Origin: Candidatus Omnitrophota bacterium | GTDB taxonomy: Bacteria > Omnitrophota > Gorgyraeia > Gygaellales > Profunditerraquicolaceae | Direction: 5' to 3' | Assembly (NCBI GenBank): GCA_016208765.1 | Contig: JACQXK010000001.1 | Coordinates: 128,218-192,217 of the forward strand | Length of the DNA: 64,000 bases | Shown here: piece after piece, positions 1,497 to 53,568 of the stretch | Layout of the letters: every line of letters starts with the position of its first letter | Numbering within the stretch: position 1 is the first letter of the stretch | The notes under the pieces: generated by a model | Database searches by the model: none | Seen by the model: only the letters and a program-made list of their open reading frames with translations | What the model was told of the DNA's origin: nothing | Position numbers and translations under genes: made by a program

Positions 1497-2261
1497 ATGA
1501 TTATGCGCTATCTGCCAAAGTCAATAAAAGCACAGTTAATTATTTACTTATTCGTTTTCGCGGTTTTTCTCGCATTAAAAGAAAGGGATTTTGCTTTTTT
1601 AGCGGCGGTTGCCATTGCAGTAATAGCAGCTGTATCGGTAGAATCGCTTATCCTGTATTTTAAAACAAAGAAATTGCAGATAGCTGAAAGCTCTGTTATT
1701 ACCGGCTTGATCATAGGCTGTGTTGTAGCCAGCGATGAGGCGTGGTGGATGTTTATTTTGGCAGCTTCTTTAGCTATTTCTTCCAAATATATTCTTCGTT
1801 TCCAGAAGAAACACATTTTCAACCCTGCGGCTTTCGGTATATTTTTAACGATAATCTTGTTCGGAGTTCCAACAGAATGGAAAGGGACTTATCTTTGGTA
1901 TATACTTGTTCCATTTGGCATTTATTTTGCTTATAAGATCAGGAAACTGGAAATTGTTCTTGGTTATACAATTATTTCATTGCTTTTATTTGGAACACAG
2001 GATTTGTTGCGTGAGTTGCCTTTAGGCAATATTTTCGGTTACTTTAGCTATTTCTATATTTTTGTGATGGTGATAGAGCCAAAGACGACTCCGGTTAAAT
2101 CACTGGAAAAATATATCTTTGGCGCAGGCTTAGCAGTATTAATTTTTGTTTTGACAGAAGCAGGGGCCAGGTTTGATGTTGAGCTTTTTAGTTTATTGGT
2201 TATGAATGCCAGCGTTCCGATATTAAACAGGATCAGATTAAAAAGGGAGGTTTTAAAATGA
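1497..2261 (+). CDS. Short RnfD/NqrB-family-like polytopic membrane protein; no FMN-attachment motif recognised
   Basis: Multi-TM ORF. The segment ITGLIIGCVVASDEAWWMFILAASLAISSKYILRF..HIFNPAAFGIF resembles the conserved (P)WW...FNPA block of RnfD/NqrB. At 254 aa it is shorter than canonical RnfD. Confidence 0.45.
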   Translation: MIMRYLPKSIKAQLIIYLFVFAVFLALKERDFAFLAAVAIAVIAAVSVESLILYFKTKKLQIAESSVITGLIIGCVVASDEAWWMFILAASLAISSKYILRFQKKHIFNPAAFGIFLTIILFGVPTEWKGTYLWYILVPFGIYFAYKIRKLEIVLGYTIISLLLFGTQDLLRELPLGNIFGYFSYFYIFVMVIEPKTTPVKSLEKYIFGAGLAVLIFVLTEAGARFDVELFSLLVMNASVPILNRIRLKREVLK

Positions 2262-2611
2262 AGAAAGTATTTCTGCTTACTGTTTTCTTAATTTCTTTTA
2301 TGGCATTTTCATCTGCTTATGCGCATCCGCCATCAGATATTATTATAAACTTTGATCCGAAAACAAAAATACTTAATGCGGTAATTATGCATAATACGAG
2401 TAATCCGGATAGCCACTTTATCAAAAAAGTTGATATTGGTTTGAATGGCAAGGAGATAATTGAACATAAAATTTCCAGAGAAGATAATAATGAAAGCCAG
2501 ACAGTCAGCTATCTAATTCCTGATGCTAATAATGGCGACGTGCTTTCTGTTGAGGCTTATTGTAGTATTAGCGGTAAATTAAGAAAAGAAATTAAAGTAG
2601 AGGTAAAGTAG
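2258..2611 (+). CDS. Exported hypothetical protein with a signal peptide
   Basis: N-terminal signal peptide MKKVFLLTVFLISFMAFSSAYA. Start overlaps the upstream stop by 4 nt. No recognisable domain. Confidence 0.5.
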   Translation: MKKVFLLTVFLISFMAFSSAYAHPPSDIIINFDPKTKILNAVIMHNTSNPDSHFIKKVDIGLNGKEIIEHKISREDNNESQTVSYLIPDANNGDVLSVEAYCSISGKLRKEIKVEVK

Positions 2612-2612
2612 A

Positions 2613-3656
2613 GTGGATAATATGGGTAGGTTAAAAAAGATAATATACGCCTTGGCAATATTTTTGTTAGCAGGAGGTATTATGAAGGACAGTAGCGGTG
2701 CTTCGGGAAAGATCCCTATTTTTAATGCAGCTACAGGCAAGGTTGAGGAAGTTGAGAAGATTTACAAAACTGATGCAGAGTGGAAAAAGCTGCTTACCCC
2801 CGAACAGTACCGTATTACCCGGCTTAAAGGCACTGAGCGGCCGTTTTCCGGGCAATGCTCGCTTTCTCCCAAAGGAGCTGTTGGTATTTATCAATGTGTC
2901 GGCTGTGGTACGGATTTGTTTCGTTATGAAAGTAAATTTGAATCCGGCACTGGTTGGCCAAGTTTTTTTGAACCTGTTTCAGAACTTAATTTAACGCTGG
3001 TTTCAGACGATAGCATGGGTATGTGCCGGGCTGAAGTTTTGTGCGCGCGTTGCGATGCGCACCTGGGTCATGTTTTTGAGGATGGCCCGCCGCCGACAGG
3101 AAAACGTTATTGTATTAATGCAGCAGCATTGAAGCTTGCAAATAATTTAGCAAAGAATGATGCTGCTAAAACTCAAATTGCTGTTTTTGGTGCGGGTTGT
3201 TTTTGGGGAGTTGAGGCTGCGTTTAGCCAAGTTAAAGGCGTAGTAAATACTACTGTTGGATTTATGGGAGGAAGCACAAAAAACCCTACCTATAAGCAGG
3301 TATGTACAGATAGGACCGCTCATGCAGAAGTTGTACGGGTAGAATATGATCCTGAAAAAGTTTCTTATGAAAAGTTACTTGATGTTTTTTGGAACATTCA
3401 CGACCCAACTACTCCGAACAGGCAGGGCCCTGATCTTGGGTCTCAGTATCGTTCTGTGATTTTTTATCATACGTCCGAACAGGAGAGGGCAGCTTTGCTG
3501 TCAAAGGAGAAATTAGAGAAGTCAGGAAAATTTAAACGGCCGGTAGTAACCGAGATAGCGCCGGAAAAAGAATTTTATAAAGCAGAGGAGTATCATCAAA
3601 ACTACTATGGAAAACAAGGGATTAAACCGTCTTGCAGCTTGCCAAAAAATTTCTAA
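2613..3656 (+). CDS. msrAB: Bifunctional methionine sulfoxide reductase MsrB-MsrA with an N-terminal membrane anchor/signal
   Basis: MsrB zinc/catalytic motifs (CVGCGTDLF, GTGWPSF, CARCDAHLGHVF) are followed by the MsrA active site GAGCFWGVEA. A hydrophobic N-terminus (IYALAIFLLAGGI) suggests export. Confidence 0.85.
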   Translation: MDNMGRLKKIIYALAIFLLAGGIMKDSSGASGKIPIFNAATGKVEEVEKIYKTDAEWKKLLTPEQYRITRLKGTERPFSGQCSLSPKGAVGIYQCVGCGTDLFRYESKFESGTGWPSFFEPVSELNLTLVSDDSMGMCRAEVLCARCDAHLGHVFEDGPPPTGKRYCINAAALKLANNLAKNDAAKTQIAVFGAGCFWGVEAAFSQVKGVVNTTVGFMGGSTKNPTYKQVCTDRTAHAEVVRVEYDPEKVSYEKLLDVFWNIHDPTTPNRQGPDLGSQYRSVIFYHTSEQERAALLSKEKLEKSGKFKRPVVTEIAPEKEFYKAEEYHQNYYGKQGIKPSCSLPKNF

Positions 3657-45086: not shown

Positions 45087-46802
45087 ATGCCGGACAGGGA
45101 TAATATCCAAATTGGCCAGATTTTGATTGATGAAGGTTTAATTACTGCCGAACAGCTTGAGGCAGGCTTACGTGAGCAAAAGAAGGATAGCGCATTTATC
45201 TGCACTACCCTTGTAAAGTTGGGTTTTCTCCAGGAAGAAAAAGTCTTTAAAGTCCTTTCCCGCCATTTAAATATTCCTTATTCTAAGCTTAATGAACGCG
45301 AAATAGACCCTTTAATTATCCAAAAGGTTCCGGCAAAGTTTGCCAGCCACTATAAAATTATTCCTATAGGATTTGATGGCTCGTCTTTGCTTGTAGCTAT
45401 GACTGATCCTTTGGATGTGCGCACGCTTGACGATATCAGATTGCTTCTTGGTGTTGAGGTAAGGGGAGTGCTTGCCTCAGAAACAGAGATCATGGATGCT
45501 ATCCGTAAATATTACGGAGTTGGTGCGGATACTTTGGAGAAAATTGTTTCTGAAAAAAGCGCTTTTGAAGAATTAAGAGTTCAGGCGCAGGAAGTACAGG
45601 ATTTGGAAACAATGGCTGAGGACGCCTCAATTATAAAGTTTGTGAATCAAATTTTGTCCGAGGCGGTTAAAGAAAGGGCAACCGATATCCATCTGGAGCC
45701 ATTCCAGGATGAATTGCGCGTGCGTTTTCGTATTGACGGTATTCTTTATGATATTAATATTCCTGAAACAATTAAATATTTTCATCCGGCAATAGTCTCG
45801 CGCATTAAAATTATGGCAGCGCTTAATATTGCTGAGCGCCGTTTACCTCAGGACGGAAGGATTAAGGTAAAAGTTATTGATTACGAACTTGATTTGCGCG
45901 TTTCTACTATGCCGACTATTTTTGGAGAGGCAGTGCAGATCAGGTTATTAAGCTCAGGTATGTTTTTGGAGCTTGAGAAATTGGGCCTTATGCCTGAGGA
46001 TATGAAAATAATTGAATCAGTGATTAAAAAGCCTCACGGTATATTATTTGTTACCGGGCCGACTGGTTCCGGTAAATCAACAACTTTGTATGCCTGCCTT
46101 GCCAGGATAAATTCCAGTGCAGTAAAAATTATCACTATTGAGGACCCGGTTGAATACCAGCTTAGAGGAATAAATCAGGTTCAGGTTAATCCGCAGATAG
46201 GTTTTACTTTTGCAGCTGCCCTTCGCCATATGCTGCGCCACGATCCGGATGTTATGATGGTCGGCGAGGTGCGTGATTATGAAACTGCTGAGATAGCAAT
46301 AAGAAGCGCTTTAACAGGGCATTTTGTTTTTTCAACGCTTCATACAAATGATGCGGCAGGCGCAATTACCCGTTTATTAGATATGAATATTGAGCCGTTC
46401 TTGGTTTCTTCTTCGCTGGAATGCCTCGTTGCACAGAGGCTTGTGCGCGTGATTTGCCCGAAATGTAAGGTTGCAGTTAAAGCTGAAGCAAGGAAAGAGA
46501 TCTTTTCTCAGATTAAAGATATTGAATTTAATCCAAAGAAAGCAGGGCTTTATGAGGGTAAAGGCTGTGAATACTGTCATTTTACCGGATATAGAGGAAG
46601 AAGCGCTATATATGAAATTCTGGTAGTTAATGAAGCGATCAGAGAGATGATCTTAGCCCGCGCTTCCAGCCAGCAAATCAAACAAAAAGCCGTTTCTCAA
46701 GGGATGCGCACGCTGCGTCAAAATGGGTTGCAGAAAGTTTTTATGGGAGAGACCACTTTTACAGAGGTGGTCCGTGTAACACAGCAAGAAGAATTACCTT
46801 AA
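45087..46802 (+). CDS. gspE: Type II secretion / type IV pilus assembly ATPase (GspE/PilB family) with an N-terminal T2SSE_N domain
   Basis: T2SSE_N-like N-terminal domain. Walker A GPTGSGKST. Asp and His boxes. Tetracysteine CPKC...CEYC zinc motif. Confidence 0.9.
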   Translation: MPDRDNIQIGQILIDEGLITAEQLEAGLREQKKDSAFICTTLVKLGFLQEEKVFKVLSRHLNIPYSKLNEREIDPLIIQKVPAKFASHYKIIPIGFDGSSLLVAMTDPLDVRTLDDIRLLLGVEVRGVLASETEIMDAIRKYYGVGADTLEKIVSEKSAFEELRVQAQEVQDLETMAEDASIIKFVNQILSEAVKERATDIHLEPFQDELRVRFRIDGILYDINIPETIKYFHPAIVSRIKIMAALNIAERRLPQDGRIKVKVIDYELDLRVSTMPTIFGEAVQIRLLSSGMFLELEKLGLMPEDMKIIESVIKKPHGILFVTGPTGSGKSTTLYACLARINSSAVKIITIEDPVEYQLRGINQVQVNPQIGFTFAAALRHMLRHDPDVMMVGEVRDYETAEIAIRSALTGHFVFSTLHTNDAAGAITRLLDMNIEPFLVSSSLECLVAQRLVRVICPKCKVAVKAEARKEIFSQIKDIEFNPKKAGLYEGKGCEYCHFTGYRGRSAIYEILVVNEAIREMILARASSQQIKQKAVSQGMRTLRQNGLQKVFMGETTFTEVVRVTQQEELP

Positions 46803-46823
46803 GTACTGAGCTATCAATAAATA

Positions 46824-48032
46824 ATGCCAACATTTAATTATACCGCAAAACCGGCTCCAGATAAAACAACTACCGGGAAGATTGAGGCGGAATCTCAGCA
46901 GGATGCAATTAATAAATTAACTGTTTCCGGTTTATATCCGATTTCTGTTTCACCGGAAGATTTTTCTGCAGAAAGCCGAAAGTTCCTTTCATTTAAGAAG
47001 GTTTCCAAAAAAGACTTAGTCTTGTTTACCGGGCAGCTTTCCGGTTTGGTTGAATCCGGAGTTAATATTGTTAACGCGCTAAAAATTATCTCCGGGCAAT
47101 CTCATAACAAAAACCTGAAGTCAATCTTAAATGACATTATCTCCAGGATAAAAGACGGAAATTCTTTATCAGAAAGTTTGTCAGCGCACAAATATTTATT
47201 TTCTGGACTTTATTCGGCAGTTGTCCGCACAGGTGAGGCAAGCGGTAATTTAAAAAGCGCCTTAAAAGGTTTGGCGGTGTTTTTGGAGAAAGAAGAGGAG
47301 TTTAGGGATTCTTTGGTTTCAAGCCTTATTTATCCTGCGTTTGTCATCTTTGTGGGGACGATGACAGTCCTTGGGTTATTGGTTTTTGTTATTCCCCGGC
47401 TCGTCTCTATGTTTGAAGATATGGGGCAGGCATTACCGCTTCCTACGCTCATTTTAATTAATATTTCAAGTTTTATACGCCATTACTGGTGGTTAATTAT
47501 GGTTGTGGCCTCTTTAGTTGTGTTTTTGTTGCGCAGGTTCTATGAGTCTCCCGGGGTAAAAGTAAGTTTTGATAAATTTAAGCTTGGTTTAACTATCGCA
47601 GGGCCCCTGATACTAAAGGCGCAAATAAGCCGTATGATGCGAACTTTATCTTTATTACTTTCAAGCGGTATTCCTATCTCAGCTTCTCTTGAGGTTTCAG
47701 CAACAGTTTTGGATAATCATGTTTTACGGCAGGAGGTGGATAAATTTAAAGAGCAAATCTCAAGAGGAGCCAGTTTATCCAGCGCATTAAAAACTTCGGA
47801 GTTTTTTCCTGAGTTTGTCACTAATGTCGTATCAATTGGCGAGGAGTCCGGTTCTTTGGATAAAGCTCTGGCACGCATTGCCGGAGAGTATGAAAAGGAA
47901 GTGGACAGGATGTTAAAAACATTGACAAGAATGACTGAGCCGGTAATAATTTTGGTAATGGGTTTAGTGGTAGGTTTTATTGTGTTGGCAATGTTGTTAC
48001 CGATTTTTCAGATAAATTTAATTGCAAGATAG
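46824..48032 (+). CDS. gspF: Type II secretion / T4P platform protein (GspF/PilC family)
   Basis: Two GspF repeats and three TM segments. Confidence 0.9.
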   Translation: MPTFNYTAKPAPDKTTTGKIEAESQQDAINKLTVSGLYPISVSPEDFSAESRKFLSFKKVSKKDLVLFTGQLSGLVESGVNIVNALKIISGQSHNKNLKSILNDIISRIKDGNSLSESLSAHKYLFSGLYSAVVRTGEASGNLKSALKGLAVFLEKEEEFRDSLVSSLIYPAFVIFVGTMTVLGLLVFVIPRLVSMFEDMGQALPLPTLILINISSFIRHYWWLIMVVASLVVFLLRRFYESPGVKVSFDKFKLGLTIAGPLILKAQISRMMRTLSLLLSSGIPISASLEVSATVLDNHVLRQEVDKFKEQISRGASLSSALKTSEFFPEFVTNVVSIGEESGSLDKALARIAGEYEKEVDRMLKTLTRMTEPVIILVMGLVVGFIVLAMLLPIFQINLIAR

Positions 48033-48043
48033 GAGGAAAGCAA

Positions 48044-48245
48044 ATGCAGAATAACCGCAGGGGTTCGCTCAAATCCCGGAAATTTACCTACCTGGAAGGG
48101 GTCATATTTAAAAAAAGAGCCAAAGGACCCGTGGGGCAATCTTTATCATTATAAATCTCCCGGTTCCCGTAACAGCGACTATGATCTTTATTCTTCCGGT
48201 CCCAATGCCGTTGAAGGTGATAGTGACGATGTCGGAAACTGGTAA
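48044..48245 (+). pseudogene. gspG: Remnant of the major pseudopilin GspG (C-terminal ~45 codons only, out of frame with the upstream ATG)
   Basis: In one frame the sequence translates as ...KEPKDPWGNLYHYKSPGSRNSDYDLYSSGPNAVEGDSDDVGNW*, which is the conserved GspG C-terminus. That frame has no start codon back to the gspF stop. The ATG at 48044 has a GGAGGA RBS but is in another frame and terminates after 36 codons. The frames would join with a -1 shift in the A7 run at 48113-48119. The N-terminal prepilin helix is absent from every frame. Confidence 0.55.
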
Positions 48246-48705
48246 CCGGCAGCACGGTTTGGCCGGTTTTACTTTTATTGAACTTTTAATCATTAGTATT
48301 ATTATCGGCATCCTGGCGGCAATTTCTGTCCCTCAATTTAAGAAAACATTTGAGAGTTTTCAATTACAAAACTTAGTGAAGGATGTCTCCTGTTTATTCC
48401 GCTATCTTCAGGCAAACTCAATTTCTCAGGCTAAGGTTTACGGCCTAAGGATAAATTTGGATACGAAAGAATTTTCTTCTTTTGTGAAGGAGCCCGGGAA
48501 AGAAGAGGCTCTCACCGGGCGCTTTGCGAAGGTAAACAGGTTTACAGAAACAATAGAGATTATTCTTATCCCTCAGGATAAAAGTGTTGTTTATTTTTAC
48601 CCCGACGGGAGCATGGATGATTTAACCATAGATTTTATTGACAAGAACAAGAAAAAGATGCAACTTGTTATTCAGGGGGCAAAAGGTGAGATCAAGATCA
48701 AGTAA
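48229..48705 (+). CDS. Minor pseudopilin (GspH-like) with a prepilin cleavage/methylation N-terminus
   Basis: MSETGNRQHGLAGFTFIELLIISIIIGILAAI matches the prepilin peptidase site G|FTFIE. Start moved to ATG 48229 from the track start at 48181. Confidence 0.75.
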   Translation: MSETGNRQHGLAGFTFIELLIISIIIGILAAISVPQFKKTFESFQLQNLVKDVSCLFRYLQANSISQAKVYGLRINLDTKEFSSFVKEPGKEEALTGRFAKVNRFTETIEIILIPQDKSVVYFYPDGSMDDLTIDFIDKNKKKMQLVIQGAKGEIKIK

Positions 48706-49066
48706 GGCATTTTCTTTAATTGAATTGTTGGTTACTATGGCAATACTTGCTGCGGGAATTGTATTTATTTTCCGTTCTTTTGCTGCTTCATTAGCCGGGG
48801 TTAAGCTAAGCCAAAATATTACTAATGCCTGTTTATTGGCAGAAAATAAAGTCTGGGAGATAGGCCAACATTATAAAGACGGGTTCAGCTTTCCTGAGCA
48901 AGGCGCGGAGGAATCAGGGGTAAAGAAATTTGATTGGAATTCTAAATTTTCTGATACTGAAATTGCCGGTTTAAAAAAGCTTGATTTAATTGTCTCTTGG
49001 CCGGAAGGAACAATGGCGTATTCAATGAATTTTTCCACTTTTGTTTACAAGAAGCAGCAGCCATGA
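48686..49066 (+). CDS. Minor pseudopilin (GspI-like)
   Basis: V/MRSRSSKAFSLIELLVTMAILAAGIVFIF prepilin N-terminus. GTG start at 48686, in frame with the track ORF at 48638. Confidence 0.7.
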   Translation: MRSRSSKAFSLIELLVTMAILAAGIVFIFRSFAASLAGVKLSQNITNACLLAENKVWEIGQHYKDGFSFPEQGAEESGVKKFDWNSKFSDTEIAGLKKLDLIVSWPEGTMAYSMNFSTFVYKKQQP

Positions 49067-49809
49067 GAAATTTACGGTCATTTACCCCGTTACACCCAGA
49101 AAGCCTCGGCCTTAAGGCTGGAGATGAATGGCAGATTAAATTTGAATCAGAAAGAAAGCCTCGCTTTTTAGGGTGGGGTGTAACGGGGTTTACTTTAATT
49201 GAAGTTTTAATTTCAACTACTATCTTTGCGGTGGTATTAGTTGTAATATATTCTGCTTTTCAGACAGGCGTCTTAAGCTATAACAAGATAGATTCAGCTT
49301 CAGGGGTTTATAACCCTGTAAGGGTTATTTTTAACCGTATAGAGTCAGATATTAAGAATACGTTTGTTTATAATAAGGATGATTCGCAATTCCATGGCAC
49401 AGAGCACGGCATTTATTTTTTTAGCATTAGAGACAGCTTTGATAAAGACAGTAACATTAATACAAATTTGGCTCTTATTAAGTATGAATTGAATGCCGAT
49501 AAGTTAAAGCGTAGCTGTTTAGTTGGCATTGATGTTTTGGATGATAATTCAACGCATCAGGCCCAGGATTTATTAGATAACTTAGAAGAATTCTTAATTG
49601 AGTATGCCTCGCGGACAAATGATCCGGATAATCCCTATCAGTGGCAGAAGTCCTGGCCCAGGGAAGGAGATGACAATCAAAAAAAGAATTTGCCTTTGGC
49701 AGTAAGAGTAACCATGGTTTTAAAAGGCACAGAGGAAAAACCCGGAGAACAAGAAAGAAGAATTAGTTTTACCAAAGTTATTGAATTGGCTCAAAGCAAC
49801 CTAAAATAG
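49064..49809 (+). CDS. Minor pseudopilin (GspJ-like) with an unusually long leader
   Basis: GFTLIEVLISTTIFAVVLVVIY prepilin motif about 40 aa after the ATG at 49064 (ATGA overlap with gspI). The track ORF starts at 48997. Confidence 0.65.
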
Positions 49810-49812
49810 TTT

Positions 49813-50829
49813 ATGAAAAAAGGCTCGGTTTTGATGATCAGTTTGTGGGTAATGGCGATATTAGTTGTTTTTGCTGTCGGGCTTGGGCATCGCGCTGCAA
49901 TTAGCTTAAAATTGGCGTGCTATCAAAGAGATAAATTAAGGGCAGTTAATTTGGCAAAGGCTGGCCTAAATAAGGCCATCGCTTTTATAGAGGTAGATGC
50001 TGTTGACCCGGATACAAAGGATTTTGACACAATCAAAGAATGCGGCATAAACCTTAAAGGAAGAAATCTTGAGGATATTTTTAACTTTAGTGAAAACAAC
50101 AATAAAGATGGTTTCAAGGCTGGTTACAAGAATTCCAGGCAGGATTTTATTTTTGGGGTGCGCGATGAGGAGAGTAAGATAAATATTAACGGTTCTCTTG
50201 ATGCTGACAAAAAAAGGGTGCTTGCGGTATTAAATTCCTGTTCTATTGATAAAGCCGCGGAAATTTCCGAATTAATTAGTGAATGGACAAAGCAGGGTTC
50301 AATAATACCTGTTGCTAAGAAGCAAGAGTTTAATGCCCCTGAGGAATTGTTGCCAGTGCTGGAGTATTTCTATAAACAACAAGCAGGTGAAATAGATTAT
50401 CGTAAAAAAGCTCAGGAGACATTTTCTGTTGTACGTGGTTTTATCACGGTTTTCCCGGAAGATAAATCAAAGGTTAATATTAACACTGTTTCTGAGCAAG
50501 TGTTGGTTATGCTGGCGAACTCGCTTGCGGTTGGAGATGAAACAAATCATGTGTTAAATGTATCTGATGAAATTATCAAATTAAGGGATTCAAAAGTTTC
50601 CTCGGGCCAGCCCTTTAAAACAAAAACTGACCTTGTGCTTGCCCAGACTGCAATTGACCCTGCAGATTCAGATAGCATAAATCTTTTTAATAAACTTACA
50701 GATGCTTTTGTTTTCAAATCACAATATTTTCAGATTGAAGTTGCCGGCTTTATTGGTAGAATAAATAAAAGCATTGTCGCAGTGTATAACCCTTATAAGC
50801 ATGAGATTGTTTATTGGCATGAAAATTAA
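49813..50829 (+). CDS. gspK: GspK-like pseudopilin
   Basis: N-terminus MKKGSVLMISLWVMAILVVFAVGL fits the GspK family GSxLIxVLWxxALL pattern. Confidence 0.8.
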   Translation: MKKGSVLMISLWVMAILVVFAVGLGHRAAISLKLACYQRDKLRAVNLAKAGLNKAIAFIEVDAVDPDTKDFDTIKECGINLKGRNLEDIFNFSENNNKDGFKAGYKNSRQDFIFGVRDEESKININGSLDADKKRVLAVLNSCSIDKAAEISELISEWTKQGSIIPVAKKQEFNAPEELLPVLEYFYKQQAGEIDYRKKAQETFSVVRGFITVFPEDKSKVNINTVSEQVLVMLANSLAVGDETNHVLNVSDEIIKLRDSKVSSGQPFKTKTDLVLAQTAIDPADSDSINLFNKLTDAFVFKSQYFQIEVAGFIGRINKSIVAVYNPYKHEIVYWHEN

Positions 50830-52252
50830 TTTTATCGCACATAACCGGAAGAAAACTGTTTTTGTTTGTCAGCTTTCGGATACTGTTTTAAAGGTTATTA
50901 AATGCCTCAGGACAGGTATAAAAAAACAGGTTTTGGGCGTAGAGGTTGAAAAATTACCTCCGGGGATTGATGATAAAAATATCAGCGTGAGGTTAGGTAT
51001 ATTACTTAAGAAATTATCTTATAATAATGATCCGTTTATTATTGTTTTAGCCCGCCAGAATGTAACTTGCAGGTATCTAAAAGTTCCTACTCACATTCCG
51101 GCTGAGATAGAAAAGATCGTCGGCCTTCAGGCATCGCGTTACCTGCCGTATCCTTCGGAAGAATTGGTCACTGGTTTTGAGGTTGTGTCGGTAGATAAAA
51201 CAGGGTATTCCGATATAAATGCAATCATTGTGCATAAAAATGTAGTTGAACGCCTGTTGAATATCGCTGCGGCGTCAAACATCAGGAAACCTTCTTTGAT
51301 TTTAAGCTCATTTGGCTTGTGTAATTTTGCTTATTATTTTAATCCTAAAGAAACATCTCCTATAATGGCCATAGATTTGGATAAAAACTTTGTTGAAATT
51401 GTTGTAGTTTCCTGCGGTAAAATGTTTTTTAGCCGTTCTTTCCAGATGCCGGAGCAGGAGGATAAATGGCAGAATGTATTTGCTGAAGAATTCAATAAAA
51501 GTAAATCTGCATATTTTAAGGAAGTGGGGGGAAGTGAACCGGTTAAGTATATTGTTAGTGGGACCAAAGATAGTATTTTTGCCGTTAGCGGTTATCTTAA
51601 AGAAGCTTTGAATTTAAATGTACAGCAAATTTCAAATATAGATATCCCTGCCCAGCCTGCTCTTATTAATGACTTGTCTCTCATGGGGATTTCTTTGTCA
51701 AGCCTGGTTGGCCTTGGAATAAATGAAATTCCACAATCAATTAACCTGCTGCCGAAAGCGCTTAAAGATAAGGCCCGTAAGGCATTGGAATTAAGCGACA
51801 GGATAAAATTGACCCTTGGTATCCTGGCGATAGTATTTATCTTTAGCCTGGGTTTGGCGAAGAATATCAATAACAAGACAATATATTTGCAAAAACTTAA
51901 GGCAGAACTTGCAAAGATTTCTAATGAGGCAAAGCCTTTAGAAGAGATTGATAAACGTTTTAAGCTCTTGGAAGGCCGTTCCAGGATAAAAATGTCCAGC
52001 CTTGATTTGCTTTATGAGCTTTCGCAAAATCTGCCTGAATCGGTGAACTTGCTTAGTTTTACTTACGAGGAAGGTAATCAGGCTGTTTTGCGCGGGCAAT
52101 CCAAGGATCTCAACTCAGTATTTAATTTTATGAATAAGCTTGAGAAGGCTCCTGTATTTAAGCAATTTAATATTAAGCTACGCTATGTAACACAGAAGAA
52201 ACTGCAGTCAGGTGATGTGGTGGATTTTGAAATTATTTGTGCCAAATACTGA
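50819..52252 (+). CDS. PilM-like actin-fold / PilN-like fusion (GspL-analogue) assembly protein
   Basis: N-terminal ~330 aa have a PilM/FtsA-like pattern. A TM helix (LTLGILAIVFIFSLGLA) is followed by a coiled-coil periplasmic region. Start placed at ATG 50819. Confidence 0.65.
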   Translation: MKINFIAHNRKKTVFVCQLSDTVLKVIKCLRTGIKKQVLGVEVEKLPPGIDDKNISVRLGILLKKLSYNNDPFIIVLARQNVTCRYLKVPTHIPAEIEKIVGLQASRYLPYPSEELVTGFEVVSVDKTGYSDINAIIVHKNVVERLLNIAAASNIRKPSLILSSFGLCNFAYYFNPKETSPIMAIDLDKNFVEIVVVSCGKMFFSRSFQMPEQEDKWQNVFAEEFNKSKSAYFKEVGGSEPVKYIVSGTKDSIFAVSGYLKEALNLNVQQISNIDIPAQPALINDLSLMGISLSSLVGLGINEIPQSINLLPKALKDKARKALELSDRIKLTLGILAIVFIFSLGLAKNINNKTIYLQKLKAELAKISNEAKPLEEIDKRFKLLEGRSRIKMSSLDLLYELSQNLPESVNLLSFTYEEGNQAVLRGQSKDLNSVFNFMNKLEKAPVFKQFNIKLRYVTQKKLQSGDVVDFEIICAKY

Positions 52253-52266
52253 GTTACCGATAAATA

Positions 52267-52797
52267 ATGCAGAAAATATTATCTAAAAGAGAAGAAACAA
52301 TTTTATTTTCAACTATCGGCATGATTGTGTTTTTTGTTTTTTTTAATTTTGTCATTTCTCCGGCCATTGATAAATATGAGGCTTTAAATAAAGAGATAAC
52401 TATAACCAAGGTAAAATTTAGAAAGTGCCTGTCACTTCTTAATCGTAAAAGCTATATAGAAAGTCATTATCGTAAATTTTCTGCCCAGGCAGCGCTTCCC
52501 AGTGAAAAAGGAGATTCTCTGGTAGATGTTTTATCAGAATTAGAGGGATTTGCGAAAGAAGCAAATATGCGTATTGCTGATATGCGCCCGCAAGGCCAGA
52601 GAAACGTGGATTTATATAAAGAATATATGATAGATATTAAATTAGAAGGAAATATTGAAGGTTTTTTAAAATTCATTTTCAATGTTGAGAATTCTTTATC
52701 TCTTTTGCGTATTAAAAAGTTTCAACTTTCTGCCAAGCAGCAATCCGGCCTTTTAGAAGGAACATTTTCTATTTCCAAATTAGCATTAAATGAATAA
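52267..52797 (+). CDS. PilO/GspM-like bitopic assembly protein
   Basis: N-terminal TM (ILFSTIGMIVFFVFFNFVI), then a coiled coil and an alpha/beta periplasmic domain. Confidence 0.55.
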   Translation: MQKILSKREETILFSTIGMIVFFVFFNFVISPAIDKYEALNKEITITKVKFRKCLSLLNRKSYIESHYRKFSAQAALPSEKGDSLVDVLSELEGFAKEANMRIADMRPQGQRNVDLYKEYMIDIKLEGNIEGFLKFIFNVENSLSLLRIKKFQLSAKQQSGLLEGTFSISKLALNE

Positions 52798-52850: not shown

Positions 52851-52893
52851 TATAACAAATTTGGAAGCATCAAACACACAAAGGAGGTGTAGG

Positions 52894-53568
52894 ATGAGTA
52901 GTTGGCAAGTGGTTTTGTTGGAACCGGCAAGAACGGTACTCACCCAGATTGGTCAGTTTTTGGTAAATGTTTTATTGGTATTAATCATCCTTATTATAGG
53001 TTGGGTTATTTCAAGGATGATTAAGGCGGTAGTTACCAAGGGCCTGAGGCTTTTGCGGGTTGATGCGATATCTGAAAAGATAGAATTAGACAATATTCTA
53101 GAAAAAGGCGGAATTGCTTATTCATTGTCAGAATTGTTAGGGGTAATTTGCTATTGGTTGGCAATCTTAGTAACTTTTGTTGTTGCTCTTTCAACGGTGA
53201 ACTTGATTACACCAAGTGTCTTGGATAGTGTTGTTTCTTATATACCCAATGTGATCGTTGCGGTGTTTTTGCTTATTTTGGGTATGTTTTTGGCGAATAT
53301 GCTTAAAAATATTGTGCAGGCAGCGGCAAATAATGCAGGGCTTCGCCAGGGAAAACTTTTAGGTAGTATTGTGAGTTTTCTGATTGTTGCATTTGCTATT
53401 TTAGCTGCTTTGGAGCAATTAAAAATTGGTGTTAAGATTACAGAGTTAACATTAAGTATTATTTTAGGGACAGTTGGCTTGGGCCTTGCTTTGGCATTCG
53501 GTTTAGGATGCAAAGATGTTGCCGGCAAATTTGTTTCTGAATTGGTTGAAACCATCAAAAAGAAATAA
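52894..53568 (+). CDS. Membrane protein with repeated conserved-TM-helix modules (MscS N-terminal-like)
   Basis: Four or five ~25-aa hydrophobic repeats (e.g. VLTQIGQFLVNVLLVLIILIIGWVISRMI). Start placed at ATG 52894 with an AAAGGAGG RBS. Confidence 0.55.
   Translation: MSSWQVVLLEPARTVLTQIGQFLVNVLLVLIILIIGWVISRMIKAVVTKGLRLLRVDAISEKIELDNILEKGGIAYSLSELLGVICYWLAILVTFVVALSTVNLITPSVLDSVVSYIPNVIVAVFLLILGMFLANMLKNIVQAAANNAGLRQGKLLGSIVSFLIVAFAILAALEQLKIGVKITELTLSIILGTVGLGLALAFGLGCKDVAGKFVSELVETIKKK

Follow-up and report, generated by a model that had tools for sequence, protein, structure and literature searches.

Does the genome of this uncultured Omnitrophota bacterium encode a pseudopilus machine without its major subunit, or is part of one gene missing only from the deposited record? 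This is the question raised by the gspG locus of the window, i.e., the whole 64-kb stretch of DNA that was analyzed, in which an otherwise intact gsp cluster holds only a start-less piece of the major pseudopilin gene.

What stands at the locus can be described briefly. The stop codon of gspF (TAG, 48030-48032) is followed by an open frame over 48033-48242, closed by a TAA at 48243-48245; its translation, EESKCRITAGVRSNPGNLPTWKGSYLKKEPKDPWGNLYHYKSPGSRNSDYDLYSSGPNAVEGDSDDVGNW, begins EESKCRITAGVRSNPGNLPTWKGSYLKKEPKDPWGN and ends DSDDVGNW. The frame is absent from the list of open reading frames, and inspection of its codons by eye over 48033-48245 finds zero ATG, GTG or TTG, which bears out the preliminary description of a GspG C-terminus lacking an in-frame start. 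The match of this remnant to GspG is well outside chance: it covers positions 48-108 of the 108 in the Pfam T2SSG profile (55.3 bits) and positions 80-133 of the 134 in TIGR01710, in the latter case with 49.4 bits, under the cutoff of 88.85. When aligned with intact orthologues, it keeps all of the invariant columns (WKG.Y.K..P.DPWG...Y.L.S.G...DD..N). The C-terminal globular domain is present, and the start codon lies in a different frame.

What, then, is the ATG at 48044? It is found 8 nt downstream of an AGGAGG, and its frame stops at 48152-48154 after 36 codons, giving the product MQNNRRGSLKSRKFTYLEGVIFKKRAKGPVGQSLSL, for which a family profile search returned no protein-family match. The preliminary description saw correctly that this ATG has a ribosome-binding site, stands in another frame and is followed by 36 codons. 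It does not, however, open an unrelated reading frame: this is where gspG really starts, with the prepilin leader in the first seven codons (MQNNRRG). The window copy keeps this leader and has lost the FTLIELMLVVIIIGVLAAMV helix that follows, i.e., the N_methyl motif (PF07963).

In the NCBI record the locus is represented by MBI4706485.1, a 64-aa "type II secretion system protein GspG" (MTAGVRSNPG...) that starts at an ATA at 48051, 7 nt past the true ATG and without its own ribosome-binding site. This PGAP product reads through the junction, which is thus N-free in the deposited record, and the number of Ns in the window is zero. The public entry carries no pseudogene or frameshift flag. The features of the locus and of the operon around it are collected in Table 1.

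Table 1. Features of the gspG locus and of the surrounding operon, in window coordinates
Feature	Position	Strand	Basis
gspG 5' stub	48031..48065	+	AGGAGG 48031-48036, ATG 48044, MQNNRRG 48044-48064, first base of Phe(+1) 48065; = L001 1722-1756
Junction, 203 bp missing (L001 1757-1959)	48065..48066	+	blastn vs L001
Frameshift product, MQNNRRG + 29 out-of-frame residues, 36 codons	48044..48154	+	translation of the window allele
gspG 3' part, R76-W134 of the intact protein	48066..48245	+	T2SSG E=7.8e-15; alignment with intact orthologues
gspE/pilB-like assembly ATPase, N-terminal MshEN (c-di-GMP-binding)	45087..46802	+	T2SSE E=9e-138, MshEN E=9.5e-21; MBI4706483.1
gspF inner-membrane platform protein, intact	46824..48032	+	T2SSF E=2e-62; identical protein on L001; MBI4706484.1
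gspH-like minor pseudopilin, leader MSETGNRQHGLAG/FTFIELL	48229..48705	+	N_methyl motif; TIGR01708 and ComGD matches below cutoff
gspI-like minor pseudopilin	48686..49066	+	TIGR01707 E=1.8e-8, N_methyl; gene call from L001 and L011
gspJ-like minor pseudopilin	49063..49809	+	T2SSJ E=1.5e-11; gene call in L011
gspK-like minor pseudopilin	49813..50829	+	NF037980 E=7e-12, below cutoff
PilM-PilN fusion at the gspL position	50801..52252	+	PilN E=1e-9, PilM_2 E=2e-4; gene call in L011
PilO/GspM-like protein	52267..52797	+	PilO E=1.5e-5; NF040576 GspM E=1.3e-4

An independent assembly allows a direct comparison. An exact-sequence look-up of the window's GspF protein led to a single Logan contig that encodes it, L001 (run SRR12113402, 3431 bp). 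In blastn, positions 1-1756 of this contig are 100% identical over 1756 bp to window 46310-48065, and positions 1960-3431 are 100% identical over 1472 bp to window 48066-49537; the 203 bp between them (1757-1959, a length of 3n+2) are not in the window. Directly 3' of gspF, L001 carries a complete gspG whose 134-aa product has both the N_methyl and the T2SSG domains. This prepilin reads MQNNRRG/FTLIELMLVV...DSDDVGNW or, given at greater length, MQNNRRG followed by FTLIELMLVVIIIGVLAAMVMPRLVGRSEQARSQAAKADINANIALALDMFEMDNGRFPTTEEGLAGLRSNPGNLPTWKGSYLKKEPKDPWGN and, at its end, DVGNW. Against TIGR01710 it reaches 141.2 bits, so that the cutoff of 88.85 is passed. The gap removes F8 to about L75, i.e., the whole N-terminal hydrophobic helix together with the alpha1C helix, and shifts the frame. 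At the two ends of the 203 bp, the intact allele has the boundary sequences GCAGGGGTTTTACCCTTATAG and CTTGCTGGTTTACGCTCAAATC (longer forms, CGCAGGGGTTTTACCCTTATAGAAC and GTCTTGCTGGTTTACGCTCAAATCC), and the 180-nt remnant and both flanks are 100% identical to it. Apart from the 203 bp gone from its middle, the major-pseudopilin gene (gspG) at this locus is an ordinary one.

This comparison also relocates the lesion, which had been linked to an A7 tract and attributed, among other options, to a homopolymer error plus a deletion. The preliminary description was right to list an assembly error plus a deletion among its options; the homopolymer part is not supported. The A7 run is unchanged in the intact allele, where it codes for the conserved LKKE, and a homopolymer error is ruled out. 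The lesion is the gap between 48065 and 48066.

Is an intact gspG at this place the rule among relatives? Eight related Omnitrophota loci have enough downstream sequence, and in six of them (L002, L003, L004, L005, L007, and L010) an intact gspG of 129-144 aa comes right after gspF, in the same gsp gene order; the products align well with the intact allele. The nearest GTDB-representative relative is an NC_groundwater Omnitrophota MAG (L002, JACROS01; GspF identity 86%), and the GspG of this sister MAG (MBI4981875.1) is 92% identical to that of the intact allele. At E ≤ 1e-20 the intact GspG has 6060 homologues, with identities of 70-92% among the best matches listed. Within the phylum, conservation of this family is very strong.

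In the remaining two loci, L008 (JAQURC01) and L009 (JAPLLY01), gspF is followed directly by a gspH-like pilin and the cluster has no gspG. The gspH-like pilins in question occupy 9203-9741 of L008 and 9206-9662 of L009. In that of L009 the first 11 mature residues, GFTLIELMLVV, equal the GspG consensus and are followed by a GspH-like body; such a sequence hints at recombination or gene conversion between gspG and gspH.

In the window the junction reads ...AACCGCAGGGGTT/CGCTCAAATCCCGG..., and the 31-mer that spans it is AATAACCGCAGGGGTTCGCTCAAATCCCGGA. The join is blunt: microhomology amounts to 0 bp, and a shift by one base is possible in neither direction. The sole similarity between the ends of the gap is a GGTTT 5-mer, 201 bp apart and 2 nt off the junction; no repeat of at least 10 nt was found at these ends, and none of the assembler k-mer size nearby. 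Direct-repeat slippage and k-mer collapse were rejected on these grounds. A 22-mer from the left flank gave 0 matches in JGI metagenome contigs.

Away from the junction, window and independent assemblies agree closely. Eleven Logan contigs from two runs, with ~60 kb of alignment, are all colinear with the window: those of SRR12113402 differ at one position (window 54493) in 37.3 kb, and those of SRR12113406 at none in 23.1 kb. The 203 bp of gspG are the single structural difference in about 45 kb compared, with no other indel against the 11 contigs, and the population is near-clonal across both runs. With lengths of only 1.4-9.4 kb and frequent breaks, the Logan contigs imply low coverage of this organism. 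In both runs breaks recur at intervals of a few kb, and neighboring contigs are separated by small gaps or overlap by less than k-1; contig ends fall, for example, at window 46302/46310 and 49522/49537 (L013, L001, and L012).

As for the site itself, a contig of SRR12113406 that is 100% identical to the window (L011) starts at 48179, 113 bp to the right of the junction. On the assumption of one break per ~5 kb, the chance of a break that near is roughly estimated at ~5%. Searches of the same run did not find the exact GspF, GspE, TruA, and H+-PPase proteins, and a query with the C-terminal 130 aa of GspF gave no 100%-identical fragment. The only independent assembly that crosses the junction site is L001, and there the gene is intact.

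How, then, did 203 bp disappear from the deposited sequence? Were they dropped by the assembly? Or, were they deleted in the cells? Since the same population has gspG intact, the finding is ordinary in either case: the assembly went wrong, or a null allele arose recently and is trivial. The probable answer is a local error of assembly or scaffolding: two pieces would have been joined without Ns over a poorly covered stretch, so that the 203 bp were dropped, and the gap would not be a feature of the organism. We infer assembly, as opposed to mutation, as the cause, just as we infer the function of the system. Such an error is suggested by the near-clonal population, where one would not expect beforehand that samples differ by a fixed 203 bp. 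It is also suggested by the blunt, repeat-free junction, which suits an arbitrary join more than slippage, and by the low coverage, with the contig of SRR12113406 breaking 113 bp away.

The way in which the assembly was probably made points in the same direction. Accession ranges and the sister MAG indicate that the window probably derives from the project and pipeline of He et al. (2021), in which each filter was assembled apart with MEGAHIT 1.2.9 and then scaffolded with IDBA-UD; curation is described at the level of bins, and read-level error correction is not described (PMC7906910). The accessions SRR12113402 and SRR12113406 were not found in the searchable text and available supplements of that paper. 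The probable combination of MEGAHIT and IDBA-UD, with no read-level error correction described, argues for an assembly error. Errors of this class, defined by a consensus without perfect support from even one read, have been documented by Chen et al. (2020), who counted 13 of them in one 1.13-Mb MAG, suspected them to be prominent with IDBA-UD, and pointed out that they put wrong protein-coding genes into databases (PMC7111523).

Some points pull the other way. De Bruijn assemblers make no false junction k-mers, so that a scaffolding or merging step is needed to produce this one, and 203 bp is rather large for a misestimated gap. The scaffold, moreover, is not generally error-prone, given that the window has no Ns and no other indel against the 11 contigs.

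It is also possible, and should be held tentatively, that the deletion is genuine: a very recent out-of-frame loss of 203 bp, leaving a gspG null allele fixed or dominant in the sample of the MAG, with the intact allele in sibling samples. Loss-of-function selection, e.g., by phages, often acts on pilin and pseudopilin genes, which counts for such an allele, and the L008 and L009 lineages are naturally without gspG after gspF. A real deletion also agrees with a junction that is N-free in the deposited record and translated across by PGAP (MTAGVRSN...), with the read support that MEGAHIT contigs normally need, and with a scaffold whose remainder matches independent assemblies, an argument for its being generally sound. 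The population, however, is near-clonal, with at most one mismatch in 37 kb between runs, and a blunt junction free of microhomology is atypical of spontaneous bacterial deletions. Further against it, the 36-aa deletion product has no record in any other assembly, the sole independent assembly over the site is intact, and GspG is very strongly conserved in the phylum.

If the deletion were real, what would it do? The window allele would yield only the 36-aa peptide and no major pseudopilin. The neighboring gene may be affected as well: the gspH start, ATG 48229, is preceded by GAAGGTGA and lies in a 17-nt overlap with the end of gspG (stop 48243-48245). Ribosomes on the deleted message would halt at 48154, 74 nt upstream of this start, so that any translational coupling between gspG and gspH would be lost and gspH would probably be translated less, as far as the arrangement of the two genes can tell. 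At the level of the population, a null allele may be segregating among otherwise clonal groundwater Omnitrophota, dominant on one filter or sample and absent on another; this is a tentative picture. Were it true, this putatively host-dependent nanobacterium would exist as a mixture of cells with and without a pseudopilus, for instance through phage pressure or as attached and free-living subpopulations.

Much less can be said for a cluster in decay, or for a pilus system with its major-subunit gene at another place, in which the remnant would be an old pseudogene; this is very improbable. It is true that the preliminary description found no secretin (GspD) or GspC, and indeed neither of these, nor a prepilin peptidase (GspO/PilD), was found among all window ORFs of at least 400 aa and the candidate ORFs of 230-290 aa. 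Likewise, a six-frame motif scan of the window for a second major pilin returned only the N-termini of gspH and gspJ. Clusters of the E-F-H-I-J-K type without G also exist in the phylum, as L008 and L009 demonstrate. An old pseudogene, however, would be expected to have gathered substitutions, and here neither the remnant nor its flanks differ at any base from the intact allele of the same population; the remaining genes of the cluster are all intact, with family matches. The comparison with L001 effectively refutes this reading, and a major pseudopilin supplied from another place, which had also been proposed, is unneeded when the same population has an intact gspG at the same locus.

That the remnant makes a functional short protein, of 64 aa from the ATA at 48051 (as NCBI lists it in MBI4706485.1) or of 67 aa by a slip in the A7 tract (a length that was correctly calculated in the preliminary description, the tract lying within the overlap of both frames), is hardly credible, given that either product would have no leader cleavage site or, at a minimum, no hydrophobic N-terminal helix for anchoring and polymerizing, that A7 represents native conserved LKKE codons in intact alleles, that the ATA comes 7 nt past the true ATG with no ribosome-binding site, and that the remnant, at 49.4 bits, stays under the TIGR01710 cutoff of 88.85.

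Coming back to the gene with its 203 bp restored, its setting is an operon in the order truA, gspE-like ATPase, gspF, gspG, gspH, gspI, gspJ, gspK, PilM-PilN fusion, PilO/GspM-like, and MscS-like. Whether this encodes a type II secretion system (T2SS) or a type IV pilus (T4P) is finely balanced in the profile scores: GspE reaches 612.5 bits with TIGR02533 (cutoff 630.25) and GspF 395.6 bits with TIGR02120 (cutoff 424), and the PilB and PilC models score nearly level with those of GspE and GspF, so that the equivalog cutoffs of T2SS and T4P are both narrowly missed. The GspL and GspM places are taken by the PilM-PilN fusion and the PilO-like protein. The operon may encode a T4P-like pseudopilus system in place of a classical T2SS, as the preliminary description remarked. 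By analogy with characterized GspG proteins, a prepilin peptidase would cut the intact GspG after the leader glycine; anchored in the inner membrane by its hydrophobic N-terminal helix, the protein would be polymerized into a pseudopilus by the GspE/GspF machine. T2SS-like loci with gspD, gspE, and gspF beside giant genes have been described for Omnitrophota in a preprint (10.1101/2023.11.21.568195).

Some further observations concern individual members of this operon. The gspE/PilB-like ATPase passes the NF053729 model for the c-di-GMP-binding motif (46.8 bits, cutoff 38), and this motif, together with the MshEN domain, suggests a pseudopilus machine under c-di-GMP control. The PilM-PilN protein, with 483-492 aa depending on the start (50774 or 50801, end 52252), is a weak match to the Amuc_1101 PilM-like family. 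Directly 3' of the PilO/GspM-like gene and on the same strand is the MscS-like gene (52861-53568), an order shared by both Logan assemblies.

The rest of the window has its own peculiarities. All of its plausible genes lie on the + strand, an unusually long co-oriented stretch for 64 kb, and the GC skew is positive in every 2-kb bin, from 0.10 to 0.25. Between 24735 and 30165, the gene for a 735-aa CHAT-protease/TPR protein precedes those for one protein with a PKD domain and one with a BNR/sortilin-type beta-propeller; together they may form a surface or signaling module.

What does all of this mean? Mainly, it is a matter of data quality: a public MAG record holds a broken gspG under the annotation of a 64-aa GspG that begins at an ATA, and whoever inferred from this genome an Omnitrophota T2SS-like system without its major subunit would probably be misled. 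Should the deletion be real, it would show, on a modest scale, that a surface-filament gene of an uncultured nanobacterium can be polymorphic for loss of function. The gene is a known one, with no new mechanism, and no long-standing question is touched.

The locus can finally be set against the systems that it resembles. The errors described by Chen et al. (2020) share with it a coding gene broken at a single scaffold locus, where another, independent assembly from the same population reads differently, in otherwise perfect colinearity (here with L001, whose flanks are 100% identical); what differs is the form, a clean 203-bp dropout here in place of a garbled stretch or a run of Ns. Natural loss-of-function deletion alleles of pilins also have an internal out-of-frame deletion by which the major subunit is lost and the machinery genes are left intact; unlike them, this allele has a junction without microhomology and is known from the deposited assembly only. 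The clusters of L008 and L009, natively without gspG, belong to the same phylum and have the same operon backbone; they show no gspG remnant, and their arrangement is common to two related MAGs, whereas the window keeps the two ends of gspG, each matching the intact allele without a difference.

With respect to a classical Gsp system, the differences are that secretin, GspC, and GspO were not found nearby and that a PilM-PilN fusion replaces GspL. With respect to the GspG of T2SS (PulG, EpsG, and XcpT; TIGR01710, PF08334 with PF07963), the window copy departs by being without codons 8-75, frameshifted, and at 49 bits. The intact allele of the same population, on the other hand, is a full-length member of that family: it has a leader ending in G, the FTLIE motif with E+5, the hydrophobic helix, the T2SSG domain, and the D-rich C-terminal loop, and it is found in the operon context of GspG, after gspE and gspF and before gspH-gspK.
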